Source: Jimgerdemannia flammicorona (Eukaryota). Taken from it: a DNA stretch of 33,894 bases. The notes beneath the pieces were generated by a model. That model was not told the DNA's origin, did not search any database, and saw only the letters and a program-made list of their open reading frames with translations. The position numbers and the translations under genes were made by a program. Where the stretch lies: positions 1 to 33,894 of the forward strand of contig RBNJ01000293.1 of the NCBI GenBank assembly GCA_003990765.1, in the 5' to 3' direction. Below are positions 1,269-31,159 of this stretch, in pieces; the first letter of the stretch is position 1; the number at the start of each line of letters is the position of its first letter.

Positions 1269-3334
1269 TGTAAGAGGGTTGCTTTTTAGGGTAACTATTA
1301 CATAGTTCTGGAAGGGTTTTTTAGAAGTTCTGGATATTCTAGAAGACTGTTTTCTTATGGTCAAGATCAATTTCATATGGAGTACATCCTCTATACTTAT
1401 TGATTTCAAGATTGAGTTGACGTCTCAACTAAAGTCCTTTTCTAGACTAGTTCTGGATGTTTAGGAGTTTCTGTATTTCAGGAAGTTCAAGAAACTAAGA
1501 CCAGCTCAGTTGAATTGGCGTATCGCTGCAGACAATACCCAATTAGGAAATTTTGTGATGGGATTAGGAGTGAGACCTAACAGAGAGCAGATTTACTTAA
1601 GAGTAGTTTGTAGGTTATTAAATAGGTTTATTCACTATTCATGATATTGCTATACTAGGAGTAGTTGTATGTATAAAGAGATATTGTGGAGAAGTGTTCA
1701 GAAATGTTCTTATGTGTTTGAGTCTGAGATTCTGAGGTCTGGGGGAGGGGGTATTTATACTAGTGAGGGGCTATCTGGACTATACTAGATATGGATGTAG
1801 CACTAAGTATCTTGCTGAGTCAGAATGCAGTCATATAGTATAAGTGTGATCTGACATGTCAAGAGATCATCTGACTGCTGAGTCAGTTTACAGTTATATC
1901 ATATAAGGCTAATCTAACTATACTATGACTGCTGAGCTATTTATAGGTTTAGATGCTGTCTGGGTAGTCTTCAATGATATCACCATCAATGACATCATCT
2001 CTGATGAAGTAGTCATCTAAGAAGAGTGGTTCACGGATTACTTCTCCTTGTTCACTGAGATAATAATATATTGGAACTTCATTGCCATCCCACAGAATTG
2101 CATCATCTGTCTCATATACTAGATAAGGTGTTGGTGAGCGAAAGAGTGGTATATCATCTTCACTTTTATCAGTTTTGCTATCTGTATACCTTCTGTAGGT
2201 TATAGTACTATAAGTTGCAGGATTGTAGTAAGCTGGTGGCTGTAGTTCATGTCACTCGTACTCGAGTGGTAGAGTGGTTGGTTCAATCTCAAGAGTTGTC
2301 TGGAGGTACAGGTTGTATTCTCCAGTCTCTTCATTGTAGTTGAAGTAATCAGGGGTGAACGTGGGTTGGTATTCATGCCAGTGGTCATTGTCCTAATAAG
2401 TCTCATATATAGTTATGAACTGTTGTAAGTTCATCAGCAAGGTTGGTGGCATGATCAGAGTTGGTAGAGATCCTTAGCTTGAGGTTATGTTGGCATCAGA
2501 GGGATCATTGTCTTCTGCTTCATCTTCATCAAAGTGGATTATATTGTAAATATCCTTTATAGCATAACCAACTTGAGATATTTGCAGAATATGGTTGTCA
2601 GGGTGCAGGAAGGTTCTGTCTGTGGTTTCAATATACTTGAGGTACTTGTGGTTAAGTTCTTGTATCATGTCATCGATTTGGCCATAGGACAGAGTAGCAA
2701 CCATTTTGGTGGTAGTAACTCAGAGGTAGGGAATAAAGGTACTGTACTCATAGAAGAGTTCTTGATGTTTGCGGGCAATGAGTTTCTGGTATTGAGATAT
2801 CTGAGTAATGTCTGTATCATAGTGGTGTTTGACCATGTCTTCTAGGAGGCAACTGATCTGGTAGTAGCTTGAGATTTGTCCAATCTGGTAGGCCTCATTA
2901 AGCATGTTCAGGGTATTCCATCAGGCTTCCATGAAGTAGAGGGGTGCTAGGCTATGGATATTTATAAGGGGCAGAGGGGGTGTGACTCGGTTGACAATGG
3001 TATTCCAAATGTCAGCATGGATGTGGTTATAGATCTCAGTGGTCATGTTTATGTGTTTGGAAGTTGTAGTTGTTGTTTGTTTTGGTTCTCTGTTTTGATG
3101 CATCTTGGTGCTCAGTATATATGCATTTGGTCCTAATTGGTAAGATTCTGTTTATATAAATCTTATGTTCTGTGACTTTGTATTGACTCAGCTTTGTATG
3201 CTGTGACTTCAGTTTGACTCAGCTTCATGATCAAGCAGGTGATTTCCACATTTGTTTGGAGGTCTCATGTGATTTTGGTGGCTTGTTCAAAGAGTGATGT
3301 GTGATTTCAGTAGCTTGGAGGTTGTGCACTTACA
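1269..3334 (-). repeat. 3' LTR (2066 bp)
   Basis: Starts tgtaagagggttgc at 1269, ends cttaca at 3334; direct repeat of 9844-11916. Confidence 0.95.
1949..3046 (-). pseudogene. LTR(U3)-embedded ORF, 3' LTR copy, 365 codons with several premature stops; unknown protein
   Basis: ORF-track pieces 2921-3103, 2720-2905 and 2474-2704 are in one frame, separated by stops explainable by C>T. Same 1098-bp length as the 5' LTR copy. Confidence 0.8.
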
Positions 3335-3348
3335 ACTCTCCCCTTCTT
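3335..3348 (-). other. Polypurine tract (AAGAAGGGGAGAGT)
   Basis: Purine run immediately 5' of the TG start of the 3' LTR on the minus strand. Confidence 0.9.
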
Positions 3349-3779: not shown

Positions 3780-6700
3780 ATCATATTCCTGAACTAAGTT
3801 AGTGGCATTCTGGAGGTTGGTCTTGGATTCCCATATGGCATCATGGATTGGGTAATCTTTCCATTTGACAAGGTACTTAGAGTGGTTCTTGTGGCCATGT
3901 TTGTTGAGGATTTGTTCAACTTCATATTCTTTTTGGTCATTAATAATGACAGGTACAGGTAGTTTGGTGGTCTGGTTTGGAAATAGCTCATCATCATTTT
4001 CATTATATCACTTGAGATGTTGGACATTGAAGACTGGGTGAATCTTAATGGTATCTGGTAGTGCTAGTTTGTAGGAGGTCTGAGAGATTTATGCAATGAC
4101 TTCGAATGGTCCAATAAACTTACTGTTCAGCTTTGTAGATGGTCTGTACTTAAGGTTGTCAACTCAGTATCCTCAGATATCTAGTAGAACCTTTTCTCCA
4201 ATATCAAAGGTTTCTTCTTAGTGGTGTTGGTTAACATACTGTAACTGTTGTTCTTGAGCTCGTGATAAATTCTCAATTGCAATCTGACTTAGATTACACA
4301 TTTGGAGTAAGAATTCTTCAACAGCTTTGACTGTGGAGGGTTCTTCAGTAGTCTGGATGAGTGTCAAAGGGGTGTTTGGATTTTGTCTAGTGTTGGTGAA
4401 GAATGGAGTCATTCCAAGAGAGACTTGCTTGCTGTTGTTGTAAGCAAACTCGACTGTAGTGAGGTGTTCATGCCAATTATCTTGTCTGTAGGAAATATAG
4501 TTCCTTAGCATTTGTTCCAGAATTTGGTTCATCCTTTCAGTTTGGCCATCAGTTTCAGGGTGAAAGGCTGTAGATAGTGCAAGTTTTGTTCCAAGGTATG
4601 CATGGAGGGCTTTCTAAAAATAGCTGATGAATTTTAGATCTCAGTCACTAATAATAATCTTAGGGAGACCATGATAGCAGAAGATATTGTCAAACAAGAG
4701 TGTGGCTATGTCTGGTGCTGTTGCAGTGATAGTAGTTGGTACAAAGTGGGTTTGTTTGCTGAGATAGTCCACAAAGACAACAATTGCATCTTTTCCAGTC
4801 TTAGTTCAGGGTAGTTGTACAATGAAGTCCATGGATATTTATTCCCTATTAATGGATAGTACTGGGATAGGGTGTAGTAAACTAGGTTTTGCTAGTATTG
4901 AGGACTTGTTTCATTGGCAGACATCACAGAAAGTAATATAGGTCTTGAGCTGATCTACTATGTAGGGCCAATAGAAGTTTCGGGAGATAACTTCGTAACA
5001 TTTATCAAATCCTAAATATCCAGCTATAGGGGCATCATGACATTCAAATAGGATAGTCTTTCGGAGGTCTCGGTTGTTTGAAACATACAGTCTGTCCTTG
5101 TAGTAGATAGCATTGTCCTTGAGTTAGTATTGATGGTACCAGGTATGCTTGTCAGCATCATCACTATTCAGAATTTCTTGGAGTGCTTGAGCTTTTTTGT
5201 CATTAGCACATGCTGCAATAATTTTTCCATGATAGTATTGGTAACTAAGGTGAGAGTTTGGATAACTTCTTCAATGGGTGGTCTGGAGATTGCATCGGCA
5301 ATAACATTCTCCTTGCCAGGGTGATACTGGATTTCATAGTCAAAGTTGGTGAGGACTTTTATCCATCTGGCTTGCTTTCGAGAAAGGGTAGTCTGTATCT
5401 TGATGTTGACTAATGACTTGTAGTCAGTCAATATAGTGAAGTGTGCTCCTTCTAGGTATGGTTGCCATTTGATCAGAGTGTCTACGATGGCTAGCATTTC
5501 CTTCTCATAAGTTACATAGTTGATTTTGGCATCATTGAACTTGCAGGAATGATAGGCCATGGGGTGTCCTTCTTGCATGAGTATGGCTCTAAGGGCTAGG
5601 TCAGAGGCATCAGTGGTAACTTCATATGGCAGGGCAGGGTTTGCTGCTTGAAGTACTGGAGTGATTATCAGGGTATCCTTCAGTGCTTGAAAGGCTGTAT
5701 CTTGTTTGGGTTTCCAATTTACAAGATTGTTAAAGTCTTTCTCTTATTTCATAGTCTAGGGTTGTTCTTCTTTCTTACTGTGCTTGGTTATTTGGGTAAG
5801 AGCAGTAGCGATTTTGGCGAAGTTGGCAACAAATCATCTATAATAGTTTGCTAATCCCAGGAATAACTGAAGGTCTTTCAGCTTCTTAAGTCTGGACCAA
5901 TCCTTGATTGCAGAGATTTTGCTGGGGTCCACTTTAATTCCATTTGGAGTGACAATGTGTCCAAGGAATTGAATTTCTTTCAGGAGAAATTCACACTTGC
6001 TGAGTTTTGCAAAAAGTCAGTTTTCTTGGAGTTTCAGTAGTACTAGTTCAAGGTATTCAAGATGTTCCTCCAGGGTTTTGCTGAAGACTAGGATGTCATC
6101 AATATAGACAACATTGAATTTGTTCAGATATGGGTGCAGGATGGTATTCATCAGTGTCTGGAAGGTAGCAGGAGCATTAGTTAAGCCAAAGGGTATAATC
6201 AGGAACTCGAAGTGTCCATAGTGGGTTCGGAATGCTGTCTTGTAGATGTCTTCTTCTTTCATAGCAATTTGCCAGTAACCATTTCATAGATCGAAAGAGC
6301 TCATAAATTGCAGGTTGGTGAGCCTATTGAATATTTCATTGATTCTAGATAATGGGCAATAGTTCTTGATGGTCTGTTAATTGAGGTTACGGTAATCAAT
6401 ACACATTCATAAGTCTTCTCCTTTCTTGACAACAAAGAGAACTGGTACACCATAGGGTGATACACTGAGTCTAATGAATCCTTGTTCTAGGAGTTTGTCA
6501 ATTTCCTTCTTAAGTGCATCAATTTCTCTCAGAGACATGAGGTAGATTGACTTGAAGGCTGGTTTGGCATCTGGGATAGTCTTGATGGCATGGTCTACTG
6601 CTTGTTTGGAAGATAGGCCTTTCAGGAGCTTCTTTGGGAATATGTCTCGGAATTTCTAGAGTAGAGGTCTGACATGGCTGTCAACTTTGGAAAAGTCTTC

Positions 6701-7230
6701 TTCAGAGTTCTCAGGTTCTCCTTTAGATAGACAGATGGAGATAGCAAAGAGAGGGCATTTCTTGGCCAATTTCTTGAGTTGTAGCTTGTTGATATGGGTG
6801 ATCTTTGGTCCAGAGTCACTAGAGTTGAGTGGATCCTTTTCACCTTGCAGTTTGAAGTTATAGTGTCCTTTCTAGATGGTCAAAGAATGGTTTACCCAAT
6901 CGATCATGGGGTTTTCTTATTTTAACCATAGAGTCCCAAGGATGATTTTGTTATCAGGGAGTGGTATAATCTGGAGAGTAATATATACTCGGTAGTCACT
7001 AATTCAGAAGGGCAGATTGTAGACTTCCTTGCTAATAATATGAGAGGTTCTATCAGCTGTAGCAACTGCTTGAGTTTGTTGTACTGGGGAGGTGAAGACC
7101 TTGAGTCTGTTGGCTGTTTCTTTATTGATAAAGTTGCCTGAGGCACCACTGTCTATCATAATCTTGACAGGTACTCAATTGATAAAAGCTTTAAGTGTAA
7201 GCAGTTTGTCTGATCCAATAGTGGTGATTT
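3780..7230 (-). pseudogene. pol: pol: aspartic protease, reverse transcriptase, RNase H, integrase, chromodomain (multiple stops)
   Basis: MIDSGASGNFI (~7150); [25 protein letters not shown] and [10 protein letters not shown] (~6100-6240); TDAS..EKEMLAIV (~5490-5620); FECHD..FCDVCQ, SMDFI and HPETDGQTERMNQ (4500-5040); KFIGPF (~4110); EYEVEQIL..YLVKWKDY..WES (3800-3930). Confidence 0.95.
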
Positions 7231-7424
7231 TGGTTATAGGAGCTTTCCTTCTGTTGGTTCTTCTTTGAGCCAGTTCATTGACACAAGAGAAGCAATCATC
7301 AATCATTTGGGAAGAGTACATTCCAATACCATGGGGGCATCAGCCACTAGATATATATCTATCTTCAATTTTCTTATAGAATTGTTCTTTTTTGTTTATG
7401 GTTGGTTGAGCTGGGGCCTTGTTT

Positions 7425-7830
7425 GATAAGCCAAATCCTTTGGATCCTCGGATGGTAGGTAGTAGTTCAGAGACTTCCTTAACTGTCAGAGTTGACTCAA
7501 TTTTCTCAAATAGGATCTGGGCAATGCAGAAACCAATAGGGATCTTGAAGGGTGTCCAACTGTGGTTTTGGATGAGGATAATAATTTTGCCTGTATAATC
7601 TTCATCAATGACTCCTCCTTCTACTGAGAGTTCTTTCAATGCTAGACTGCTGCAACAGCATATTCTTCCAACATGTCCTTCAGGAATTTGGATACTGATT
7701 CCTATATAGACTTGCTTGACTTCTTGGTTGGAAACTATAGCTTCTTCGGCTGCATACAGGTCATATCCAGCTGCTTTTTGACTTCCTTTGGTTGGGGCCT
7801 TGGTAGTTTGCCTTAACTTGACAAAGTCTA
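7425..7830 (-). pseudogene. dut: dUTPase domain, in frame with gag and upstream of the protease
   Basis: Five trimeric dUTPase motifs: AAGYDL, (R>C)SSLA, GGVIDEDYTG, IAQI, RGSKGFG. Confidence 0.93.
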
Positions 7831-9828: not shown

Positions 9829-9840
9829 CTACTACTACCA
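9829..9840 (-). other. Primer-binding site candidate (TGGTAGTAGTAG), 3 nt after the 5' LTR
   Basis: Minus strand reads ...CTTACA ACT TGGTAG...; TGG complements tRNA CCA, and TGGTAG matches initiator-Met-type PBSs. tRNA identity is inferred. Confidence 0.7.
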
Positions 9841-10201
9841 AGTTGTAAGAGGGTTGCTTTTTAGGGTAACCATTTTGTAGTTCTGGAAGGGGTTTCTGGA
9901 GGTTCTGGATATTCTGGAAGACTGTTTTCTTATGGTCAAGATCAATTTCATATGGAGTATGTCCTCTACACTTATTGATTTCAAGATTGGGTTGATGTCT
10001 CAACCAAAGTCCTTTTCTGGACTAGTTCTGGATGTTCAGGAGTTTCCATATTTCAGAAAGTTCAAGAAACTAAGACTAGCTCAGTTGAATTGGCGTATCA
10101 CTGCAGACAATACCCAATTAGGAAATTTCGTGATGGGGTTAGGAGTAGGACCTAATGGGGAGCGGATTTACTTAAGAGTAATTTGTGGGTTATTAAATAG
10201 G

Positions 10202-10340
10202 TTTATTCGCTATTCATGATATTGCTATACTAGGAGTATTGTGTGAAGGAATATTGTGGGGAAGTGCTCAGGAGTTATGTTTGGATTGTTTGAGTCTTTC
10301 AAGTCTGAGATTCTGAGATCTGGGGGAGGGGGTATTTATA
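10202..10340 (-). promoter_or_regulatory. LTR genomic-RNA TATA box (TATAAATA, 10333-10340) and poly(A) signal (AATAAA, 10202-10207)
   Basis: Canonical U3/R order, conserved in the other LTR (1752-1759 and 1627-1632). Confidence 0.65.
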
Positions 10341-10529
10341 CTAGTGAGGGGCTATCTGAACTATGCTAGATATGGATGTAGCACTAAGTGCTTTGCTGAG
10401 TCGGAATGCAGTCACGTAGTACAAGTGTGATCTGACATGTCAAGGGATCATCTGACTGCTGAGTCAGTTCACAGTCACGTCGTACAAGGCTAATCTATCT
10501 ATAATATGACTGCTAGACTATTTATAGGT

Positions 10530-11627
10530 TTAGGCACTATCTGGATAGTCTTCAATGACATCACCATCGATTGCATCATCTCTGATGAAGTAGTCGTCTA
10601 GGAATAATGGTTCGCGGATTACTTCTCCTTGTTGGCTGAGGTAGTAATACATTGGGACTTCATCTCTGTCCCACAGGATAGCATCATCTGTTTCGTATGC
10701 TGGATAAGGTGTTGGTGGGCGAAGGATGGGTATATTGTCTTCGCTTTCATTGGATTCGCTGTCTGTGTACCTTCTATAGGTTACAGCACTATGAGTCGCA
10801 GGGTTGTAGTATGCTGGCAGCTGTGGTTCATGTTGCTCGTACTCAGGTGGTGGAGTGGTTGGTTTGATCTCAAGGGTTGTCTGAAGGTACAGATTGTGTT
10901 CTCCGGTCTCTTCATTGTAATTGAAGTAATCGGGGGTAAATGCGGGTTGGTATTCATACCAGTGGTCATTGTCCCAATAAGTCTCATATGCAGTTATGAA
11001 CTGTTGTAAGTTCATCGGCAAGGTTGGCGGAGTGATCAGGGTTGGCAGAGATTCTTGGCTAGAGGTCATGTCGGTATCAGAGGGATCATTGTCTTCTGCT
11101 TCATCTTTGTTGAAGTGGATTATATCATAGACGTCCTTCATGGCATATCCAACTTGAGGCATTTGCAGGATGTGGTCGTCAGGGTGCGGGAAGGTTCTGT
11201 CTGTGGTCTGGACATATTCAAGGTACTTGTGGTTGATTTCTTGTATCATGTCATCGATTTGGCCATAGGACAGGGTAGCAACCATTTCGCTGGTAGTAAC
11301 TCAGAGGCGGAGAATAAAGGTGTTGTACTCATAGAAGAGTTCTCGATATTTGCGGGCAATGAGCTTCTGGTGTTGAGACATCTGGGTAATATCTGTATCA
11401 TGGTGGTGTTCAACTATATCTTCTAGGAGGCGGCCAATCTGGTAGTAGCTTGAGATTTGTCCGATTCGGTGGGCCTCACTAAGCATGTTCAGGGCGTTCC
11501 ATCAGGCTTCCACAAAGTAGAGGGGTGCCAGGCTATAGATATTCATGAGGGGCAGAGGGGGTGTGGCTCAGTTGACAATGGCATTCCAAATGTCAGCGTG
11601 GATACGGTTGTAGATCTCGGTGGTCAT
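10530..11627 (-). pseudogene. LTR(U3)-embedded ORF, 5' LTR copy, 365 codons (MTTEIYNRIHADIW...IEDYPDSA) with three TGA stops; unknown acidic Tyr/Pro-rich protein
   Basis: ORFs 11301-11486 and 10530-11285 are in frame with the ATG at 11627. The first TGA is CGA in the 3' LTR copy. Confidence 0.85.
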
Positions 11628-11696
11628 GTTTGTGTGTTTGGAAGTTGTGGTTATTGTTTGTTTTGGTTCTCTGATTCGACGTGTCTCGGTGCTCAG

Positions 11697-11802
11697 TATA
11701 TATACATTTGGTCCTGATTGGTAAGGTTCCGTTTGTGTAGATCTTGTGTTCCATGACTTTGTATTGACTCAGCTTTGTGCACTGTGACTTCAGTTTGACT
11801 CA
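11697..11802 (-). promoter_or_regulatory. Putative promoter of the LTR ORF: TATATATA (11697-11704), CCAAT (11717-11721), two TGACTCA sites (11765, 11796)
   Basis: Motifs lie 70-175 bp upstream of the ATG; equivalents occur at ~3116-3221 in the other LTR. Confidence 0.55.
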
Positions 11803-11916
11803 GCTTTGTGATCAAGCAGATGATTTCCAGATTTGTTCGGAGGTCACATGTGATTTCGGTGGCTTTGTTCAGAGGGTGATGTGTAATTTCGGTGGCTTGG
11901 AGGTTGTGTGCTTACA

Positions 11917-12079: not shown

Positions 12080-14600
12080 GATGTTCTGCATCTTCAACAA
12101 CCCCTTGACCACCCAGGGTGGGAAATCTAAATGATATTCTACATACCATAGCTTTGGCATTCAATACATATTCAGCACCATCACTCTGCCAGCTAGGGAC
12201 ATATGTCAGCCTTCCCATCGCAGCAGAACATTTCTCCACTCTAGAAATTTATGGTCTCACCATGCCCAGGGAAGTAGAGATCCAAACACTGAGAAGTAGA
12301 TCTCAAATAACACACTAGTTCACCAGCCGATACCACCATCCCAATGACATCACCACCAACAATACCAGCACCCAGCACCAGAGTCTCACACTTGTGCCAG
12401 TTTAGCTTAGTGCCAGAACCCCTCTCATATCATTCCACAGACCTCTGTAACTCCCCCACATCTGCCAAGTGACCACCATATTATCAGCAAAGGCCCCCAC
12501 CTTCCAATTAATCCCTAAAATGTCCAAGCTCCCAATCTGATGCCAAATTCTGTCCAGTAGAGGCTCCAGAGAAAGGGCATACAATATGGGTGACAAGGGA
12601 TTCCCTTATAGTACCCCATGTCCCAGGGGGAAGGTCATCCCCCTGTGGCCATTAATGATCAATGCCACCTGACTGTCCTCCAAGAGGCCAATCAATGATC
12701 TTTGGAACCCTGGGGGGATTCCAATCCATTTCAGTACTCCCTCTAGCCATATTCTCTGCACTCTATCATAAGCCTTCTCCTGATCCAGAAACACCAATCT
12801 GCTATCCACCCCTATTACCTGGGTACCTTCAATCACTCCATGAACCTAAGCTATTCTATCTCGAATCAACTGACCACTGACAAACCCATGCTGCTCCACA
12901 CCAAGCATCTACTGAGTGATTCCTTGCAGCCTCATTACTAAGATCTTCATCACCAGTTTGTGGTCTATGTCAAGAAGAATAATTGGCCACCAATTCATCC
13001 AGTCCTCTCACCTCCCCTTATTCTTGTAGAGTAAGGAGACTAATCCTAAGTACTGTCCCCCAATCCAGGCACCAGACCAAAGAACTCCATCACACATAGC
13101 AGTCATTTCCTCTAGCACCACACCCACTCCAGCCATCTTCTGCCAAAAATCCCAGAGAAGTCTATCCTCTCCTGGGGCTATCCCCTTACTTGTTGTGGCC
13201 ACAACCCTGCAAATTTCCTCGCCACTCACTGGGTCCCCCAACACCCCAAGTCCTATCGCAGGGTCTGGGTGCCAATCCCCCAGCTGCCTTTCAATGTCCA
13301 GAGTATCCATTTCTCCTTCCTCCTCACTCTATAGATTCTCCCACTGGGTTCTTAATAGGCCCAGAATCACTGGAGACCCCACCACCAACTTGCCATTTGC
13401 ATCCAGGACCCCCTCCCACCTTTGCTTTGTTTGTCATGCTTGTAACAACTGTGACAAAAATCTAGTAGGCCTCTCCCCCTCCTCAAGCCTCTGCCACCAC
13501 AGGTGGGCCACCATTCCCTGCAACTTCACCTCCTTCTCTCTTTGTAATACTCCCTTAAGCTTGTCTACCTCCTGCCAGATTCTCACAATATGCCAATCAG
13601 TCACATCCTCATCCTCCAGCACACCTGCCCATCTCTCTATAAGTGCTGCCAGACACCATGAGGCCCACAGTACCCTCCGCCTTCACTGGGTATACTTTTC
13701 TTTCCCTGCCTCCCTCCAATACCTCTGAGCAGACATCTTCAACCTTCTCCAGCAGTCCCCAATCTCCAGGCCTTATTCCCACCACCTACCAATATTTCCA
13801 ACCACTTCTGTTTTCCAACTCTCCCACAATACCCTATCCTCCAACAAGGAAGAATTTAGCCACCAATGTCCAGGCCCATCCTCATTTCCCCCAAACCTCC
13901 CCCCTCCAAGCAGCCCCCAGTGATCAGACCATGGACACCATACTACTTCCAGCACTGATCAGACATCTGCTCCCCAACACTCCGCCATCAGAACCCAGTC
14001 AATCCTGGAGCCCAGCCCTGCTGTCCAGTGAGTGTACACCCACTGATTGGCCCAAAAAAGTCTTCCTGAGTCTACCAAAGAACATAACCTCTCTGTCTCC
14101 AACCAGTCCCCCAACCCACCACTTTTGCCCTGCACACCTTACCTGCCATCTGTTCTATCCATCTCCTTATCCCATACTATGTTGAAGTCACCCCCCATAC
14201 AGTCCAGCCCAACTCCTCTCAATACACCAGCCTCCTTCAATCCACGAATCCAATCCACTCTCTCCCCTCTCTCAGCTGGGCAGTAGCAAGACCCAACTGT
14301 CAACGAGCCCCATCCAGGCCTTTTTCACATTCCCCACACCACTCAAGACCCCCAATATCCAATGTCCTCAATGTCCCCCATTCCTTTCCGAACAAGAATA
14401 CACACTTTCCCCCTCTATACTGCTGCGCCCCCCCATTTCTTAGTCCAATCCTGTAAGTCCACATCTGCCTCATAATGAATATCCTGTAACAAGAAGAGGT
14501 CCACATCCAGTCTCTTAAGCCATCTAAATATATACCTCCTCCTAGTTGCCCCCCGTAACCTATTAACATTCAACAAGAATATCCTAGTTGTACTGTTCAT
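12080..14600 (-). pseudogene. LINE B ORF2: APE endonuclease plus reverse transcriptase (stops and frameshifts)
   Basis: MNSTTRIFLLNVNRLR, LLQDIH, GGDFN, WSDHW, APGED, DQEKAYDRV, LSPILY, GAFADN. Confidence 0.92.
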
Positions 14601-14631
14601 ATTGAAAAAATGTTGCAATAGCAACCCCAGC

Positions 14632-16539
14632 CTAGTACTCCATGCTCATCTCATCTCCAGCCAGATTCAAGCACCATTCAGCTTCCAAGTTACCCTCCAC
14701 ATTAGCCTGAGCATCCAGTGCCTCCAAGATTTCCTGACATTCCACCCCATCCACTACCTCCATGTTGGACTGGTAGTCTAAGCAGACTGCACACCACTTC
14801 TCCAGTTCCTTCCTCAAGTTCCACAAGAAAAGTGCCCTGTCACTCGCAATCTTCTGAAGTTCCTCCTCATGCCGATCATCAACTTGATATTCAACTGACT
14901 TCAGGAGGACAGCCAAGATCTCATTCCTCATCTTCCTCGGCACCTCCTCCTCCCATAAGATCTCCTCCCAATGCCTCTCTTCCATTACCCTGAAATCCTC
15001 ACCCCCCAGCTCTTCAGCTGCTACCCCTTCCAGAGTCTTCCACATCCACTTCTCCTCATCCACTGCCTCTGCTGCACCCTGAGCGATTCATCCCCCATCC
15101 ACCTTGGGGTCCATCAGCACACTCCTCCTCACTGACTCATCTCACTCCTCATCTGGCATATCCAGTAACTCCTCCTCCTCCTCAGCTCCACCTGGGACAC
15201 TATACTGAGGGTGCACACCCACCCATTTCTGCATCTGCCTCCAAATCGCCTTCTCTCCTCCCCCACTCCAATCCAAGCCCCACCCTGGGCCATTTCTCCC
15301 CCCTCTGCCCAGGCACTCTCCTGCAACCCTGCAACTCTCTCCCCTGAGCTTCCACCAGCCCTACCCCCACCCAACCTCACCAGCAGCTCCTTCTGGATCT
15401 TTCACCCCTGCATCTTCTCCCAAGCCCTCTTCTCCATCCAGACCCTCTTCCCATCCACCTCCCCTACCACTGTCCTGGCCTCAAACTCCTTCCAGACCAA
15501 TCTCCTCCTTGCAACCGCCCCTTCCAGATCCTCCAGAGCCTCCAACAAGTCCTCCTCCTCCTCCTGGGTCCTCTTCACCCTCATGATCTTACACTCCACT
15601 GGACCCCACCTCAGTGCCGCTGGCCAGTCCCTTGACTTCTCCATATTCTCCTTCCCAGCCAGCCTCACCCTGACATCGATGTCACCAGTCCAAAGCTCCA
15701 TGCCCTCCCAGACCTTGAAACCAACATCCACAATCTCTCCATACTCCTTGATCACCTCCACAACCAACTCCCTGGTCCTCTCCTTCGACACGGTAGAGAG
15801 ATTCAACACTGTCAACTGCACCACTCGGGGGTCCCAGCATATGCACCGGGCCATGGGGACCACAACTCCACCAACTGTCACCCCCTTCTCCATGGCCATC
15901 AACAAGGTGTCCTCCTCCTCAAACCCCACCTCAACCCCTTCCTTTCTTCTTAAAAACTTCACCAACACTGCTCCCTTAACCTCCTGCACCACTAGTCCTA
16001 AGATTATCCTCGCTGTCACCACCAAGCCCCAGAAGCCATAGTGACTGCAAATTCTGACCTCGACTTCTTGAGTAACAGGGCCGACACCATGCCTGTCACT
16101 CTATCTGCCAGGTTCCTGGGCCTCATGTCCACTCCCAGTCCTGAATTGCCAACCACTATCACATTTGAATTTTTTGCCAGATCTCTAGTCACAGCCCCAT
16201 CAACAGTTACATCTCCATCTCTAGCCTCTACTCCCACTCCTTCCCTGCCATCTGAGACTCCCCTCCCTATCCCCCAGTAGCAGCTGTCGGTGCCTTCCCC
16301 AGATCCAGCCAATTGTCAAGGCCTGAGGCCATCTTCTCCATTCTGACCTTGTCAGCAAAGGTCGACCTCTCTCCACCTCTCTGCCTCAGCCTGCCCCTCT
16401 CTCCACCACCAGGACCTCGGCTAGCTATTGAGGCCCCTGGCATCTCCAAACCATCTCCCCTCCTCCCCACCTACTACCAGCCAAAGGTGCTGGCACCCCC
16501 CTGACCAGTACGCTCACCAGTTCAATCATTGCCATCCAT
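14632..16539 (-). pseudogene. LINE B ORF1 (RRM-like core, acidic C-terminus), broken
   Basis: ORF pieces 16267-16470, 16016-16312, 15402-16025 and 14632-15063 are homologous to LINE C ORF1 (e.g. VDVGFKVWEG vs VDIGFQVWEG). Confidence 0.8.
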
Positions 16540-16610
16540 GTTAATAGTCACTTGATACCGAAAATGTAGTAAAAGTGTTGTCTGAGTTCTTGTGTCACCT
16601 GAATGTTACT

Positions 16611-17911
16611 AGTGCAAAGTCCACTAAAAGAGCTTATATTGGATGTCTGTACATGTTGGAACTCAACATTTGCAATGATCTAGCATATGCTGGAGTTTGC
16701 TATGGTATGCATCCTTTTTTTCTTCAGTCGGCTGAAGTAACTTGTTTCAGATAATTGAAGATTTATTTTAAAAAAAACAAAAAAAGCCAATAGATTCAAT
16801 AGTGGCTGCCGATAAGGAAATATAGGCCAAGGCTCTAGGTGAAAGCAAGTGGGATGTACTTAGGAATATTGTTGGAGTTTTGGAAGTAAGTGGTGATTAC
16901 TCTGGCTCTACACTCATTTTGTCAGCCTCTACACTCATTTTGTCTGCCTCCATACAATGCAACACCTCACCACATATAACTGCCAGTGTTTCGACAATTG
17001 TACGAAGGATATAGTCAAACAAATGACCCTGACAATAAGCTTGGTAATACCAGTATACAACCTTCTAATTGACTGGTTAGAGGATAAGCTCGAGGACAGG
17101 CTGGAGGGTTGTGGTGATTTATGATTGAGCCCGGATCAGAGAGATACCATAGAGGTTGCTCTTAGTAAGCTCAGAAAGTACTACTCCCAAATAGATACTG
17201 CTGTATACTCAATCAGTACAGGTATGTCAATGTTAGTGTGTGGCTATTGCCCCTTCCAAAACAGAGAAACCCTCACAAAAACTCACTCTCTCCTCTCCTT
17301 TGAACAGTGCTGGACCCATGCTTAAAGCTATAATACTATAAAGATCAGAGCTGGGAGCAGCACTTCATTGAGAGAACCAAGCAGACCATAATCAAAGTGT
17401 ACTGGAAAAACTATGCGCCACTGCAAGGTTCCGGCCGAAGTTCAGATGAATATGTCAAGGGATTCCTCCTATCTCACATTTACTTTAGCAGAAAGAGGAA
17501 GAGGGAGCTGTCAGTGGAAGAGCTGCCATTAATAGATGAACTTACTATTTACCTTGCCAGTGATCACATAATCCTGCTGGAGAGCACAGAGGTGCTCAAC
17601 TGGTGGAAGGTGGGTTGTCAGGTAGGCATTGGGCCAATTTAACCCACCAATCTAACCACTACTCTATCCACTACTCTATCTACCACTCTACCCACCGCTC
17701 TACCCACTGGGGTATGCAGCTGCATCAAATAGACTTCCCTAGCCTGTGTGATATAGCTCGGGACTATCTGGCGATTCCTGCCTCCAGCGCTCCTGTCAAG
17801 CAGATGTTCTCAGGTGGGGTAGACCTCATTGCCCCAAAGAGGTGTGTGCTGAATGCTAAGATAATCTGGGTATATATGTGTCTGAAGTCTTGGTGTGGCT
17901 CAGGCTGCTAA
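16611..17911 (+). pseudogene. hAT-superfamily transposase, 3' half, with four introns; 5' half displaced by LINE B
   Basis: LILDVCTCWNST (DVxTRWNST), KLRKYY, VLDP(R>C)LK, LNWWK..FPSL..IARDYLAIPASSAPV(KQ<ER)MFS dimerisation domain. Donors at 16705, 16886, 17222, 17610; acceptors ending 16986, 17307, 17719. Confidence 0.92.
17657..17708 (+). repeat. ~12-bp tandem repeat (ccactactctat-like, ~4 copies) in a hAT intron
   Basis: Directly visible. Confidence 0.7.
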
Positions 17912-20840: not shown

Positions 20841-21143
20841 GAGTTATTGCTAGAATTCACCCTCACCCCCACCATTGCCACTATCACCCTTTTGGCTCTT
20901 GATGAGCAGCTTGTATGCTGTCCATATGAGAAAAAATCTAACATTATCAGCAGAGAGTGTGTTTCCACCTCAAATACTCTCTCTTTTGATAATCATTGCA
21001 GGGTGAAAAATGAGTAAACTAGACCAATGTATGAATTAAGGGCTGCTATTCTGTTTGCTTATGAATATAGCAGGAAAGAACAAAGAAAAAGAATAAAGAA
21101 AAGAGAGGGAACAAAGGAAAGGGTGATGTCACCAAAGATTTCA

Positions 21144-21348
21144 ATCTGGATGGGTCAATCTGGATGGATCATCTGGATGGGTCAATCTGGATGGATCATC
21201 CAGATGAATCAATCCAGATAGATCAATCCAGATCAATCCAGATCAATCTGGATCAGATCACAAGACCAATCTGAGTTGATTCGAATCCATCACATGATGA
21301 ACTTGAATCAAATCTCATCTGGATCAACTCTATTTGTTTGGAGCACTA
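21144..21348. repeat. Subterminal ATCTGGAT/ATCCAGAT repeats and hAT-type terminal inverted repeat end
   Basis: About ten copies of the motif in both orientations, followed by tttggagcacta (reverse complement TAGTGCTCCAAA). Confidence 0.8.
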
Positions 21349-21592
21349 GTTGTAAGATTTGATAGATAATCTTCCAAGTCTCTTTTCTACAACTCATACT
21401 CTCTCTATCTCAGGTTGATTTGTTATATCTATTGCAGAGCAGTAGAAGAGAGACAATAGTGATTTATCAGTATTGAATTAGTATTTTCTTTACTTTTTTA
21501 TAGTTTCTAATACTTCTAGTTATATCTAGAGTATATTCATTTTAGTATAGTACCTTCTTTCTTTTACTATCATCAACAAGGTATCATCTCAG

Positions 21593-21912
21593 TAGTACTC
21601 CCAATAAATCAAATCAAAGGTCCAATTCAATTTGATTCAAATCAAATTGAAGGCTAATTTAATTTGAGGTCCAATTCAAACTCTATTTTTCAAAATGTAA
21701 TAACTCAATAAATATATATTTAAATTCAATAATCTTTAGCTTATTAGATTTCTCTTATATAAGAAAATCTAACAAACTAAAGATCATTAAATTTAAACAT
21801 ATATTTATCAAGTTATTATATTTCAAAAAATAGGGTTTAAATTAGACCCTTAATTTAATTCAAACTTAATTCAAATTGAAAAATTCCTAATTTAATTTGT
21901 TTGGAAGTACTA
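21593..21912. mobile_element. hAT-type foldback MITE 1 (320 bp)
   Basis: TIRs tagtactcccaa / ttggaagtacta; 8-bp TSD catctcag / tatctcaa (two transitions); internal palindrome centred ~21757. Confidence 0.85.
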
Positions 21913-22173
21913 TATCTCAATATATTATAGGTTATATAGAAAGTTAGTTGACCTTAAGTATTAAGTACTAGTATAGATTATATGTAAGTTCTTGGTATCT
22001 ATATATAGTAAAGTTCTCTAAGCTTTAGTAAACTTCTCAGTGAACATAGTTCTAACATAAGTAACTGTTTTTTAGGTAAAGTTGAGATGAGAGAGGATAT
22101 GGCTATTATAGATAAGAGAAAGAGTAATTATAGTAAACTAGTTAAGTACTAGACTAGAGATAGTTATTAGAGC

Positions 22174-22556
22174 TAGTGCTCCCAATGATTTGAATCGAAT
22201 CAAGGGTCCAATTCAATTCTAATTCAATTTGAAGTTTGATTCAAACCTTAATTTTCAAAATATAATAACTAGACAAAAACTCATCTAAATTTAACATATT
22301 TTAGCTTGTTAGATTTACCATATTAATGTGATTCCAACAAGCTAAAGTACATTAGATTTGGATGAGTTTATACTGAGTTATTACATTTTGAAAATTAGGG
22401 TTTGAATTAGCCCCTCAATTCAATTTGACTTTTGATTTGATTTGACTTTTGATTTGATTTGAATTGATTTGAATTGAAAAATCCCCAATTCGATTTGACT
22501 TGTTTAACTTTCAATTCAATTTAATTCAAATTAATTTGACTTATTTGGGAGCACTA
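22174..22556. mobile_element. hAT-type foldback MITE 2 (383 bp)
   Basis: Perfect TIRs tagtgctcccaa / ttgggagcacta; perfect 8-bp TSD attagagc (22166-22173 and 22557-22564); internal palindrome centred ~22324. Confidence 0.95.
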
Positions 22557-22902
22557 ATTAGAGCTAGAGTAGATACTATATTGGTAGGGTCTTCTGATTG
22601 GTACTAAGTAGTTAGATGATAGATATTACTCTTAGTAGCTTTTGATATACTATAGTATTACTAGGAGATTATTAAGAGATCCAAGACTATCTGAATTAGA
22701 TATCTTAACTATATTTAACTAAAACTAAGAGCTGATATAATAATATAATCAAGGTCTATAAGCTTAAATAGTAGAGTATTAGAGATCTCCTCTTATCTTA
22801 TATATAAGTTATCTACTTATCTCATTTTTTTTTTTTTATAGTCACTTGAACTCGTCCTATATTATACCCATCTATTCTATATAAATACAATAAACCCACC
22901 CC

Positions 22903-25900
22903 CTATCCAATCCCCCTAGGGGGGCCCCTCCCCCCTATCCCTTCTCGATGAAACACCACTCTATCGAATACAATTCCCACCCTCCCACTACTCTATTTGT
23001 ATATCCTTGCCACCAAACCATACCACCACCCCTCTGAGGGACCCCAACCTATCTACCATCCAGTCAACAGATCCCCCAACAGCTCCTCCCACCTTACAAC
23101 CTTCTCCTGTAGGCTCATCTGCTGCCTCTCCTTAAATACAAATAGCCAATATCCCACCAGACCCACCCAAACTGCTAACACCCACCCAACAGTGAGTCAA
23201 CTATCACCCACCCCCCCCACCAGCCGAGATCTCAAGTTCTCCCAGCAATCTCCTTCACCCACTGGCCTGTGCTCCACACCCAGTCTATTCTCTATTTCAA
23301 CCCAAAAGTCCCCCAAAACCTCACACTCCCCCAGCCAATGTTCTGACATCTGCACCAAACCCCCAACTTGCCCTACATTGTAACACTCCTCACAATCAAA
23401 ACATCCACCATCCACCAGATGCCCAGTGTGGAAATTCAGCATGATGTTCCTCTGTAGCATTCACCACTATACTATCCAGAACTTGGGGGGAAGCCACTGC
23501 TATACCTCAGCACTCCAAGACCAGATACCAGCCCAGTCCCACTCCTTACTGATTCTGACTACCTGCCAACCACTTGGCCAAAGGTCTTGGCCAAGACCCT
23601 GCTGACACTCTATTCTATCTCCAATATCAAAAGTAACAAGTGGAGCACCCCCCAGAAGCAGTCTATTTCATCACCATATATGAGGACCCCACAATACCTC
23701 CCCCTCATTGCCTTGCTAGCACAGACCAATTCTGTATACTCCATCAACCACTCTCCATCAAAAGCCCTTAAATCGCAGCCACCAAATTCCATTGAGCCCT
23801 ACCAAAGAGAGTAGATCTCCTGAGGACCCTTGGGAGGAGGTTCTCATCTCCCACACCTTCTGCATCAGAAGTACCCAACCCCCTCCCTGTAGTTCAGCCA
23901 CTCTCTTCAGCCACCAGGCTCGCAAGCAGTACAACCTCTTAGAGAAATCCACAAGACCAAGACCTCCCCTGTCCACTGGTGTCGCAAGAGTATTCCAACT
24001 GATCTGGGACCTCCTCTCTGCCCAAATCCAATCCCTAGCCACCTTCATCAGCCTCTTCACCACCCAAGCTGGGAAGTCTAGATAATATACCACATACCAT
24101 AGCTTGGGAAACCAGTATATATTCAGAATTGATACCCGCTCTGCTAGAGAGATATGGCAGCCTCCCCAATCTCGAAGGGCCTCCCCCCAAATAGCCACCC
24201 TACTCTCCCACCACACTCATGGTAAGACAGAACCATATACAGAGAGGAAGATGCCCAGATACCATACTATCTTACCAGTAGAGACAATTGTTCCAATAAT
24301 GTCCCCACCCACCAGTCCATTCCCTAGCACCATAGTCTCACACTTATGCCAGTTGAGCTTTACCTCAGAGTGAACCTCATACCATTCCACTGTCTCTTGA
24401 AGTGCCTCGACATCTACCACAGACCCAAGGCCAACCACTATATCATCTGCAAAGGCCCCCACCTTCCACACTATACCATAGATAGAGAGCCCCACTACCT
24501 TCTGGCAAATCCTATCCATTAATGGTTTCAATGAGAGAGCATAAAGAATAGGGGACAAGGGGTCCCCCTGAGGAACCCCTCTTCTCAAGGTAAACACCTG
24601 ACCATGGTGACTATTACACAACAGTGCTGCCTGACTGCCCTTAAGCAGATTCACCATAGAAGCCCGAAATCCAGGAGGAACACCAATATGGTCCAACACC
24701 TTGCCCAGCCAAACCTACCAGACCTGGTCATAGGCCTTCTCCTGATCCAAAAAGACCAACCTCCCATCCAGGCTGCAAGCCTGGGCCCCTTCAATAATAC
24801 CATGCACCCAAGCAGTCCCATCTCTAATAAGCCTACCTCCAACAAAGCCCTGCTGCTCCTCCCCCAGCACCTGTTGGGCAACCTTCTGCAGTCTTGCGAC
24901 AACCACCTTAGTTACCATCTTCCTGTCTATGTCCAAAAGCATGATTGGCTGCCAGTTCTTCCAGTCTTCTCTCCTCCCCTTGTCTTTGTACAATAAAACC
25001 ACTAGCCCAAGGTCCTGCTCTCCAACCCATTCACCACTCTAAAGAATATGATTATAGAGAGCAGTTATCTCCCCCAGAATGCTGGAGACCTTGACCATCT
25101 TCTTCCAGAAGTCCCATGGTAGTCTATCCTCCCCTGGTACTGTTCCAGTTTTAGTTGCTGCAAGGACACTCTGGACTTCCTCACCTCGCACTGGCAAGGC
25201 CAAGTCATCCAGTCCAGCCACTTGCAGCGGCCTCCATTCTCCTAATGCATCTTCAATAGTCACCTCATCAGTACCCCCTTCATCCTCACTCCACAAACCC
25301 TACCATCTCTCTTTCAAAACCCCTAGGATTTGTTGCATGCCATGTACTATGTCTCCATCAGCATTGAGAACTCCATCCCACCAATGTCTCACCCTCCTAG
25401 CATTGAGCAGATGGGATAAATATCTAGTAGGCTGCTCACCCTCCTCAAGCTCCTACCACTATAGCCTAGCAGCCATACCTCGTATATGCACCTCCTCCTC
25501 TTCTCTCAGAACCTGTTGCAGTTCTAATATCTCCAATTTAATCTGTACTAACCTCTAATCCTCCACCCCATCAGAAGTAAGCAAACCTACCCAATCCATT
25601 TGCAATCTCCTCAGCCTGCTGGAAGTATACCTTGTGTGCTTCCTCCTTCATCTCCCAGCTTCTCTCCCAGTCTCTCTCCAATAGACCCTCGCAGCCTCTT
25701 TCAATCTCATCTACTGGACACCCACTGACAAACCCTCACACCTCTAGTAAGAAACTTTCACCTGAATGTCCTCTACCCACAAATCCCACAACCCCTTCTC
25801 AGGTAGTAGGGAGGAGTTGAGGCACCAATGTCCGGGTCTATCTCTACTCTCCCCAAACTGCCCCTGTCCCAATAGTCCCCAGTAATCAGACTATGGGCAC

Positions 25901-26562
25901 CATTCTACCTCCAATACCTTCTAGACATCAGACCCCCAGCATTCCATCATCAGAATCCAGTCAATCCTTATACCCAAGCCATTCACCCAATGCATATAGA
26001 TCCTGGAGTTGCTCCATTGTGTTCTACCCATATCCCCTAAGGAGCTCAGCCTCTCTACCTTCTCCCATACATCCAGGCCTCCACTTCTCCCTCCTGCACT
26101 CCTCCCACCATCAGTGTGGTCCAGACACTGATCCCGAACCATATTAAAGTCTCCCCCAATCATATCGACCCCTTCTGCCAAGAGAACATCCTCCTCCAGC
26201 AGCTCCTCAATCCAAGCAATCCTCTCACCTCTAATCGCAGGGCAGTAGTAAGAGCCAACCCTCACCGACTCCCACCCTGGCCACTGCCAATCTCCTCAGA
26301 CCAAATGGTCACCCCAGCTTCTGATTCCCTTCAAGTCACCTCTATCCTTCCTCATCAGAATTACCACTTTTCCAAACCAAGCAGTAGTCCTGCCCCATTC
26401 CTTAGTCCACTTCACCTGATTATCCTCATCCTCATACTGAACATCCTGTAGTAAAAAGAGATCAGCCTCCAATCCCTTGAGCCAAGTAAAAATGTTCTTA
26501 CACTATCCAGACCCCCTCAGCCCATTCACATTCAAAGAGAAAATATTAGTTATACTGTTCAT
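22903..26562 (-). pseudogene. LINE C ORF2 (~1220 codons): APE endonuclease, RT, C-terminal Cys/His region
   Basis: MNSITNIFSLNVNGLRG, GGDFN, RIDWI, KNWQPIMLLDIDRK, DQEKAYD, GVPQGDPLSPILY, AFADD, CFDC..HWLGEC. Confidence 0.95.
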
Positions 26563-26593
26563 AAGGAATAATGCTAAAAAGTGATCCCATCCT

Positions 26594-28633
26594 CTATAAG
26601 TCCACATTCAGCTCCTCCTGCACCAAGTCCAATTCACATTCAGCAGCTAGTTCCCTTTCCCCAGCTTCCCATACCTCCAATTCTCCCAGAAGTTCTACTA
26701 TTGCCTCATCTTCCCTCTCCTCAAATTCCTCTCGATACTCCAGACAGGCCTCCCTCCAGAGCTGCAAACCATGCCACTCAGCCCAGCAGTATGTTGCCTG
26801 CTCACTTGCAGCCACCACCAGCTCTGCCTTCCTCACCTCATTGACCTCATATCTCTCCTCCTTTAAGAGGATCACAAGAATCTCCCCCCTCAGTGCCTCC
26901 ACTACTCCCTCACCATGCAGAATCTGCTCCCAGTATCCCTCAGGCATAACCCACAGGTCCACTTCTTCCAATGTATCAGCCACAAGGTTATCCATCACCT
27001 TGCTCATCCACAGCAAGTTTTCTACCTCCTTCCCTCCAGGAGTCCCTGGCTGTCCCGCATCCAACATCATGGTATCAGCACCCATACTGGCAGCCTCATC
27101 CCACTTCTCCTCAGGGACATCCACCAGCTCATCCTCATCAGCTGCCACCACCTGGCTCCCTTTTGCCACATCAGGGATCCCAAAACATACTCGCTGGGCC
27201 CCCTTCATTAGCATATCCTCTGATGTCCTTCTCTTTACAGCCAGGCCCCTCCTGATCAGAGGGGGGGGGGTGGAGTTCAATTCTGGCTCCCAGACCTCAA
27301 AGGTGCCATTGGCAAAAGAGTCCTTGCTCAGTACCTTCCCATCTCCTTCCTTGCCTACCTCCACCTCCCCTATCCCTTTACTAGTCCAGACACTGGCCTC
27401 AACACCCCCAGACACCTCAGCCCCAACTGCCTTCTTCTTTGCCTTAACTGTCATACTTGCCAGTAACTCCCTCTGCCTCCTGCACCCCTGCACCCGCTCC
27501 CACTGCCCCTTATCCATGTGAATATGCTTCCCCTCCATAACCTCCAGATGTGTCAACTCCTCATATATCTTCCAGGCCCTTGCCCTCCTCTCCACAGCTC
27601 CACTCATCTCCTCCAGCACCTCTAACAAGTCCTCCTCCTTCTCCTCACTCCTCTTCACCCTTGATACCTTACAGATGAATGTCCTCCACATCAGCACAGA
27701 AGGCCAGTTACTTGCCTTCCCCATGACCTCTTTTCCTGCCAGCCAAATCTTAACATCAATGTTACTTGTCCTGATTGTCGTCCCCTCCCACACCTGAAAG
27801 CCAATATCCACCACATTACTATACTCAATCATCACCTCCTCCACCCTCTTCCTAGTCTCCTCCTTGGTCACCATGAGCACCCCCTTCACCAGAAGCTATA
27901 CCACTCTGGAGTCCCATCGCAAGCACTGCACTATAGGGACCACCACCTCCCCAACTATGACTCCAGTCTTCAGTACCTCATCTAGTGGACTGGCCTCCTC
28001 AAAGCCCACCTCAACTCCCTCCAGACCCTTCAAGAACTTCACTGAGGCCACCCCAGCCACCTGCTTCGAGATAAGCCCCAGAACCATCCTTGCCATCACT
28101 GCCAAGCCCCAGAAGCACAAGGTCACTGCAAACTCCGAGATCAACTTCTTGAGCAACAGGGTCACCACCAGCCCCATTATACTATCCACTAGGTCCCCCT
28201 TCCACATCGGGAACCCCTGTCCCCCCTGGCCATTAGCCATCACATCTTCTTTTTTTTCCTGATTCTCTATCACACTCCCATCAACAGTCACACCCCCAGC
28301 CACAGCACCTCCAGCCCCTACACCTACACTCCCAGCTAGAGCACTGCCCCCTCTCTTAAGGCTTATCTTGCCCTTCCCCTCAATAGCACTAGCCCTATTA
28401 CCAGCCGGCCACCCACTCTTCTTAACCTTGTCTGTGAAGCTTGAGAGACCAGATCTTCCCTCATTGCCACCTGACACCAGTCCCCCTCTAGAGCCTTCTC
28501 CATTCTTCGGTCCTCTGAAGGCTCCCATCCCTAGACCATAACCCCTTCCCACCTGCTGCCAGTTGAAGGCCCTAGATCCATTCAACCTAGTATGCACACC
28601 TGTATGGTCATTGCTCTCTATGTTGCTAGTCAT
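26594..28633 (-). pseudogene. LINE C ORF1 (~680 codons, one internal TAG at 27896)
   Basis: ORFs 27896-28633 and 26594-27889 are in the same frame, lie upstream of ORF2 and are homologous to LINE B ORF1. Confidence 0.88.
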
Positions 28634-28723
28634 CTTTTACCAAAAAACATTATTGAAAGTATTGTCTGAGTCTTGTGTCACCTGAATGTTACTGGTAAAA
28701 GGTGCTTGTCTACTTATCTCATT

Positions 28724-30694: not shown

Positions 30695-31159
30695 TATGAC
30701 AGTATAGCCAGATTCAGAAGAAGGAAATAGGGAACAGATACTTGATTGCACTTAGTCCCAAAGTAGTATAGCCACATAGTTAGCAGTCCTCGATTTTGCC
30801 ACTTGCTAAATATTTCGCAAAGTGTGAGATCAAGCTTCTTGATATAGTATAGCATTTTGCAACTGGCAAAATATTTTGCAAAGTGTTAAATGACTCATAA
30901 CTTAGCCATGTAACCCAGTAACCATCTTATAGCTAGCAAACTTGTATAAATAACCTAGTATCTTCAGTGAATAAACCTCAGATCAAAATAGTTCAAAGCA
31001 AAGAGATAGCAAAGGAACTAGTAAGCCTATGGGCAGATACACTTTGAACTCACCCACTCTCTCCTGCAACTCAAAGGACTCTGAGGAGTCAGAGAAGATC
31101 AAGTTTTCAAGATACAGAAATCTGACGTACTTTCAAGAGTAAACATCCACTACATTACA
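30695..31159 (+). repeat. Putative 5' LTR (~465 bp) of element 2
   Basis: Ends tatgac...attaca are consistent with decayed TGTGAC...GTCACA. TATAAATA ~30946, AATAAA ~30970; followed by ACT-T(G>A)GTGCC, PBS-like. Partner LTR not in the window. Confidence 0.55.

Follow-up and report, generated by a model that had tools for sequence, protein, structure and literature searches.

The element and its terminal repeats

The window, by which we mean the whole stretch of DNA analysed here (33,894 nucleotides), carries on its minus strand a Ty3/gypsy chromovirus with the domain order dUTPase-PR-RT-RH-INT-chromodomain. The element has the features by which chromoviruses are recognized: long terminal repeats (LTRs) of the TG...CA type, a tRNA-type primer-binding site, a polypurine tract, and the order PR-RT-RH-INT with a chromodomain at the integrase's C-terminal end, as found with Pfam. 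Each of its two LTRs contains a long sense-strand frame, which is the subject of this work. The main features are the following:

9844..11916, minus strand: 5′ LTR, 2073 bp, TG...CA (alignment of both repeats, boundary reading, motif map)
10530..11627, minus strand: frame, 5′ LTR copy, 365 codons plus stop, with in-frame TGA at codons 20, 42 and 109
9829..9840, minus strand: primer-binding site (TGG... on the sense strand), 3 nt past the 5′ LTR (read from the sequence)
3780..7801, minus strand: decayed pol in two frames with many stops (Pfam scan with X at stops; coordinates from residue ranges)
7424-7801, minus strand: dUTPase, upstream of the protease (Pfam, E 9e-32 on the open piece)
6869-7234, minus strand: protease (Pfam RVP_2)
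5951-6400, minus strand: reverse transcriptase (Pfam RVT_1)
5342-5716, minus strand: RNase H (Pfam RT_RNaseH)
4899-5075, minus strand: integrase zinc domain (Pfam Integrase_H2C2)
4005-4199, minus strand: SH3 domain of Tf2 type (Pfam SH3_Tf2-1)
3780-3926, minus strand: chromodomain (Pfam Chromo, E 4e-12)
3335..3348, minus strand: polypurine tract abutting the 3′ LTR on its upstream side (read from the sequence; loose contig ends at 11916)
1269..3334, minus strand: 3′ LTR, 2066 bp, TG...CA (alignment of both repeats, boundary reading, motif map)
1949..3046, minus strand: frame, 3′ LTR copy, of the same length, with 5 in-frame stops

Beyond position 11916, contigs from other sequencing runs continue into purine-tract sequence, as expected at the start of an LTR, and a loose contig end at 9846 in another run marks the same junction between the 5′ LTR and the primer-binding site. 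Since pol is spread over two frames and interrupted by many stops, the element is an old, decayed chromovirus. An Rfam search of the window gave no match. In the Atlas, the clusters nearest to the RNase H piece most often belonged to Streptophyta, a record too thin for naming a host.

The frame is 1098 nt long in both repeats and occupies LTR positions 290-1387, which agrees with the preliminary description of this DNA, where LTRs of about 2.07 kb with ORFs of equal length at 11627-10530 and 3046-1949 had been reported. It lies 3′ of the polypurine tract, which abuts LTR position 1. The LTR boundaries, the primer-binding site and the polypurine tract thus show that the frame sits inside U3. 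The same description had spoken of a self-contained gene of 365 codons, and this does not hold for the window: with three in-frame stops in the 5′ copy and five in the 3′ copy, two of the latter at the same places as stops of the 5′ copy, both copies are dead. The longest stop-free stretch measures 256 codons in the 5′ copy versus 100 in the 3′ copy. The in-frame stops fit C>T decay, which is dominant among the differences here; pol is likewise heavily decayed.

The chromovirus is flanked by two distinct copies of a non-LTR (LINE) retrotransposon, of which copies or fragments, coded on the minus strand, occur at 22939-28696, 12089-16613 and 6-1268. The copy at 22939-28696 contains an Exo_endo_phos endonuclease and RVT_1 (Pfam, with X at stops), and its plus strand is strikingly C-rich, with a GC skew of about -0.5. 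Inside it, two ATG-started ORFs overlap on opposite strands, 26594-27874 (minus strand, 426 codons) and 26571-27521 (plus strand, 316 codons), neither of which has a Pfam match when searched alone; the plus-strand frame is probably a by-product of the skewed strand composition. The regions 21000-23000 and 29000-31000 contain only 19-30% G+C. Across the window the observed/expected ratio of CpG is 0.14, and TG and CA are raised. This depletion, together with the share of transitions among the differences between the two frame copies (144/159), fits heavy cytosine methylation of the repeats of the host.

The LTRs of a single insertion are identical at birth and drift afterwards. A comparison of such sister LTRs therefore cannot normally show selection, and the reasoning of the preliminary description is corrected here on this point. 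The pentamers flanking the element differ (ACTCT versus CTATA), and there is no matching target-site duplication; a 4-bp reading of the target site matches at 3/4 positions, which is not decisive. In addition, the flanks of the element, 6-1268 on the left and 12089-16613 on the right, both align with the LINE at 22939-28696, over parts that overlap and at different identity (74% on the left, about 65% on the right), so that they belong to two different LINE copies. The two LTRs are therefore probably not sisters. Such a structure might have arisen from two insertions joined by recombination, or by gene conversion of one LTR. Because the LTRs are probably non-sister, they would represent lineages that diverged while active, which would explain why a coding signature can be read between them.

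Coding signal in the frame

The open stretch of the 5′ copy is longer than chance would give. Its 256 codons without a stop exceed the longest run in each of 1000 dinucleotide-preserving shuffles of the LTR (1000/1000; largest run 203), and where it has three stops per 365 codons, 300 shuffles averaged 14 and none had fewer than 7. The alignment of the two LTRs contains no gap column inside the frame versus 17 in the remaining LTR, in line with the earlier remark that indels appear in the non-coding R region.

Substitutions between the two copies also follow the reading frame. The copies differ at 159 of the 1098 sites, by 144 transitions and 15 other changes, and the differences are distributed over codon positions 1, 2 and 3 as 51, 24 and 84. 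The Nei-Gojobori dN/dS is 0.21 in the frame versus 0.78 and 1.16 in the two shifted frames, all values being uncorrected for the transition bias of 144:15. As C/G transitions dominate and CpG is depleted, the mutated sites were shuffled within classes of dinucleotide context. Against these context-matched shuffles, the transitions still show a third-position excess (46, 23 and 75 observed versus 57.8, 29.8 and 56.3 expected by codon position), synonymous changes number 70 versus 53.9 expected, a count reached in 0 of 5000 shuffles, and new stops are fewer than expected (4 versus 9.1, P=0.019). In the phase test, P is 0.0003 for the frame versus 0.12 for the LTR segment preceding it and 0.24 for the one that follows. 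Of the last 70 codons, 32 differ between the copies and 19 of these differences are synonymous, including TTA/CTC, GCT/GCA and CCC/CCA, which bears out the observation, made by eye in the preliminary description, that over half of the differing codons there are synonymous.

Relatives of the frame were sought among 1.84 billion representative proteins, and three matches were obtained at E<=0.001. P0003 (128 aa, JGI, annotated as a "hypothetical protein") is 91% identical to the frame, begins at the same first methionine and is open at all three places where the 5′ copy has a stop. P0001 (247 aa, ENA) shares 66% identity and 83% similarity with the frame over 250 residues and stops at the same point; its alignment with the frame contains two gaps of two residues each, both in-frame. 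The residues identical in P0001 are not significantly clustered into blocks (longest identical run 14, P=0.18). As the first residue of P0001 corresponds to Met115, support from the divergent lineage is confined to the part of the frame beyond its N-terminal third. Both proteins are single-member clusters, each a gene-finder call on a contig of about 1 kb. The third match, P0004 (E 9e-5), was put down to chance and rejected: this tandem-repeat protein also matches 24 unrelated Pfam families, and no stretch of it passes alone. Beyond P0001 and P0003, no further relative was found among the 1.84 billion representatives.

A broader sample of the LTR family came from four public runs, of which two are soil metagenomes and two belong to coded organisms; their contigs were placed on the 5′ LTR at a likeness of at least 80%. 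The number of contigs placed, 5051, indicates that the LTR family is very abundant. In the complete table of indels from these contigs, 7 places are affected in the 975 non-coding bases of the LTR; the 1098-nt frame has a single +1/-1 pair, its members separated by 3 nt on the same contig, and hence no net frameshift. Among the 40 of 410 variant places listed, position 11303, where the 5′ copy has its stop at codon 109, shows another letter in 19 contigs across the 4 runs. In run X1 the non-stop letter accounts for only about half of the depth there, which means that many copies are dead at this place too. Thousands of short contigs of the LTR family occur in soil metagenome runs of several studies (X1-X3, X16), from which it follows that soils commonly harbour the host or close relatives of it.

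Taken at the level of the family, we consider the frame to be protein-coding with high confidence. Additional ORFs (aORFs) of LTR retrotransposons are extra frames that most copies of a family retain and that host genes lack; what was observed in this respect is that open relatives and frame-keeping contigs exist. Our verdict is that the LTR-borne accessory ORF is real and has decayed in this copy. The earlier proposal of an accessory gene under purifying selection is supported for the family, on account of the open copies, the lack of net frameshifts and the synonymous excess, while a self-contained, intact gene is not supported for the window, where both copies carry stops.

Product, expression and competing explanations

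The family-level product would be an acidic protein of 365 residues with a pI of 4.28. Its last 225 residues contain 46 Asp and Glu versus 10 Lys and Arg, as well as 21 Tyr and 25 Pro. With low confidence, the models suggest a helical N-terminal third (the first ~140 residues) followed by a tail rich in Tyr, Pro, Asp and Glu: AlphaFold with an alignment of four rows reached a pLDDT of 31.5, and P0003 folded alone gave a helix bundle with a pLDDT of 51.3. Profile and structure searches, which the preliminary description had proposed, were run on the frame and its relatives and matched no described family in Pfam, the PDB, the Atlas or Foldseek. Pfam returned nothing for the frame, P0001 or P0003 at E<=0.01, the only hit up to E<=1 being one DUF at E=0.079, below its own cut-off. 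The best E-value in the sequence profile search of the PDB was 0.42, the open 255-residue stretch had no usable match in the Atlas, and in Foldseek the low-confidence model of P0003 had no match at E<=0.001, generic helical bundles being all that came up. PPxY-like and similar short motifs of the tail were dropped as candidates, as they are not kept in P0001 (by eye).

The base composition of the frame by codon position resembles that of pol, which fits a long residence in the element better than recent capture. As to function, the only hint is that the acidic and aromatic tail resembles acidic activation domains. Going by this make-up of the tail, the protein might be a trans-acting helper directed at LTR transcription or at a host factor, a role that we regard as doubtful.

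The preliminary description had placed TGACTCA, CCAAT and TATA motifs ahead of the ORF and a second TATA after it, and motifs of these kinds were indeed located on both sides of the frame in both LTRs. Their positions in the 5′ LTR are as follows:

11628..11916, minus strand: upstream U3 block, candidate promoter of the frame (motif map)
11832-11898, minus strand: 33-nt tandem repeat, 2.1 copies, at the very start of U3
11796-11802 and 11765-11771, minus strand: TGASTCA sites (TGAGTCA, LTR 115 and 146)
11717-11721, minus strand: CCAAT (LTR 196)
11698-11704, minus strand: TATATAT (LTR 213)
10334..10466, minus strand: second promoter-like block, 3′ of the frame, candidate promoter of the genomic RNA (proposed from its motifs and their position relative to AATAAA)
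10460-10466, minus strand: TGASTCA site (TGACTCA, LTR 1451)
10334-10340, minus strand: TATAAATA (LTR 1577), candidate TATA, with the U3/R border about 30 nt further on
10202..10207, minus strand: sole AATAAA of the LTR (LTR 1710), candidate poly(A) signal, at the same place in both LTRs

The order and spacing of the motifs are identical in the two repeats. A further TATAAAT occurs downstream of the frame, at LTR 1391. The 33-nt repeat is followed by two units of about 31 nt, each with one TGASTCA site, in an enhancer-like layout. Of the 12 TGASTCA sites in the window, 7 lie in the two LTRs and so within 12% of its length; the total of 12 is not unusual in itself (shuffle mean 8, with 14 of 100 shuffles reaching 12), and the TATA and CCAAT motifs are short and frequent. 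The ATG of the frame, at LTR 290, has a purine at -3. Between the TATA at LTR 213 and this ATG there is no other ATG in the 5′ copy and one extra ATG in the 3′ copy. In run X16, which is taken for RNA by guess only, depth is uneven along the LTR and some bins are uncovered, a pattern counted neither for nor against expression.

We propose that the frame is an accessory protein gene within the LTR of a dUTPase-bearing chromovirus, and we assign to this statement as a whole a probability of roughly 60%. Lying 3′ of the polypurine tract, the frame is part of U3, so that reverse transcription places a copy at either end of the DNA form. By the same position it rides at the 3′ end of the genomic RNA and would stay in solo LTRs. 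Its origin may have been simple, since a frame that lands downstream of a functional polypurine tract becomes U3 by definition. As for its expression, the likeliest mode, which we put forward tentatively from the arrangement of motifs, is a short mRNA of its own from the upstream TATA block. The upstream block would drive an mRNA of about 1.5 kb that starts ~30 nt past the upstream TATA, near 11670, has the ATG of the frame as its first AUG and ends at the single AATAAA of the LTR. Through this sole signal, the short mRNA and the genomic RNA would have a common 3′ end. The latter would start at the second TATA, 190 nt past the stop codon of the frame; as this TATA (TATAAATA) lies 133 nt before the sole AATAAA, the result would be an ordinary short R.

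A real gene might instead be expressed in the retroviral manner: transcription would begin at the genomic promoter, splicing would yield a subgenomic RNA for translation, and the upstream block would serve the LTR as an enhancer and not as a separate promoter. The evidence for coding is the same for this possibility as for a gene with its own promoter; like sag and nef, the frame is found past the polypurine tract, where the genomic RNA has its 3′ end, and tandem repeats in such a position, at the beginning of U3, typically act as enhancers. Against splicing, no clear pyrimidine tract followed by AG is seen by eye just upstream of the ATG, and the two blocks, upstream and downstream, consist of the same elements, a TGASTCA site and then a TATA. 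We judge expression of this kind to be unlikely, though it is the main rival of our model.

It is improbable that the frame is a functionless relic, a captured or de novo sequence that is open in many copies only through a recent expansion of the family. Such a history would agree with the death of both window copies and with the outcome of the database searches, in which only two relatives and no homologue, domain or confident fold were found. However, it does not account for P0001, which has remained open at 66% identity with in-frame gaps only, for the excess of third-position and synonymous changes over the context expectation, which is not seen in the flanking LTR segments, or for a frame free of net frameshifts next to non-coding LTR with indels at 7 places.

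Another arrangement, which we find quite improbable, would have the genomic RNA start at the upstream TATA, so that the frame would lie in an R of ~1.5 kb as the first cistron of the full-length RNA. The upstream block does look like a full promoter, and in the 5′ copy the ATG of the frame is the first after its TATA. However, a first cistron of 365 codons, followed by a further ~690 nt, would block the translation of gag, and the well-formed TATAAATA at 133 nt before the sole AATAAA gives an ordinary short R. We know of no precedent for an R of 1.5 kb. Finally, conservation at the level of DNA or RNA (enhancers, packaging, structure) and not of protein is hardly credible: a U3 can be selected for promoter function, as argued in the available part of a study on the U3 of crapaud (PMC10787394), but such constraint gives no three-base periodicity, synonymous excess or in-frame gaps, all of which are seen here.

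If the accessory gene does have its own promoter, a more far-reaching interpretation can be outlined, although we doubt that it holds in full. The LTR would then be a self-sufficient gene cassette, and the upstream promoter of every LTR, solo ones among them, could drive transcription for the accessory protein. Read-through over the genomic promoter would act as a switch between accessory mRNA and genomic RNA, and the protein would be a trans-acting good shared across the family, for example a transactivator of the LTR or a blocker of host silencing. Gene dosage would in that case be uncoupled from the number of intact elements.

Comparison with known systems

Genes located in U3 or overlapping it are known from retroviruses, namely sag of MMTV, nef of lentiviruses and bel2/bet of foamy viruses, and U3 accessory genes are a hallmark of complex retroviruses. 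The frame described here resembles them in being a sense-strand frame 3′ of the polypurine tract, located at the 3′ end of the genomic RNA and doubled into both LTRs. It differs from sag and nef in that it has no sequence or family match to Sag or Nef (Pfam, PDB profile search, and Foldseek with a low-confidence model). Unlike the retroviral U3 genes, moreover, it lies wholly inside U3 with promoter-like blocks on both sides, and its carrier is a chromovirus-type retrotransposon without env.

LTRs with cargo of another kind are also known. In Cassandra elements, the LTR carries a 5S RNA gene. LTR cargo of the Cassandra type is marked by an independent transcription unit; the frame has promoter-like motifs before it and a candidate poly(A) signal after it. 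Retrozymes have LTRs with hammerhead ribozymes, according to the part of the source available (PMC12029980). As in Cassandra elements and retrozymes, the cargo proposed here is doubled along with the LTR and, in our main model, would have its own promoter. In contrast to both, whose cargoes are RNA, it is a protein frame of 365 codons accompanied by motifs of Pol II type.

Extra frames in LTR retrotransposons have been collected under the name of aORFs. Those of plant and fungal elements include the env-like frames of Athila and Bagy2, the antisense frames of Grande, RIRE2 and Retand, and that of Boty, and in the accessible part of that work they are placed in the internal region, either ahead of gag or in the stretch from pol to the 3′ LTR (PMC7264820). 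Similarly, Retrosat2 is described, in the available part of another paper, as having an ORF0 upstream of gag-pol (PMC3485330). The frame in the window is like these aORFs in being additional, having no relatives outside the element family and being conserved among copies. It is unlike them, as far as the accessible text of PMC7264820 defines them, in that it lies inside both LTRs and not in the internal region.

Elements of comparable structure are the dUTPase-bearing fungal chromoviruses, of which PosPlaTy3 from Postia placenta, an element from Phanerochaete and Tmt1 from Tuber are described in the part of the source available (PMC2864245). They share with the element in the window the Ty3/gypsy type, the chromodomain and a dUTPase on the N-terminal side of Pol. 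The available part of that paper mentions no LTR-borne frame for them, unlike the element in the window; a figure there shows an "add. ORF", which the text available does not locate. In the openly accessible literature that was searched, we found no protein frame located in the LTR or U3 of a retrotransposon.

So far as this search shows, no chromovirus has been described with a protein frame in its LTR, an arrangement that a few retroviruses have. If it is a selected gene, the LTR can become a carrier of coding cargo outside retroviruses as well. The route to such an arrangement would be a simple one, in which a frame downstream of the polypurine tract becomes part of U3, and solo LTRs, which are usually seen as regulatory debris, could be protein-coding.
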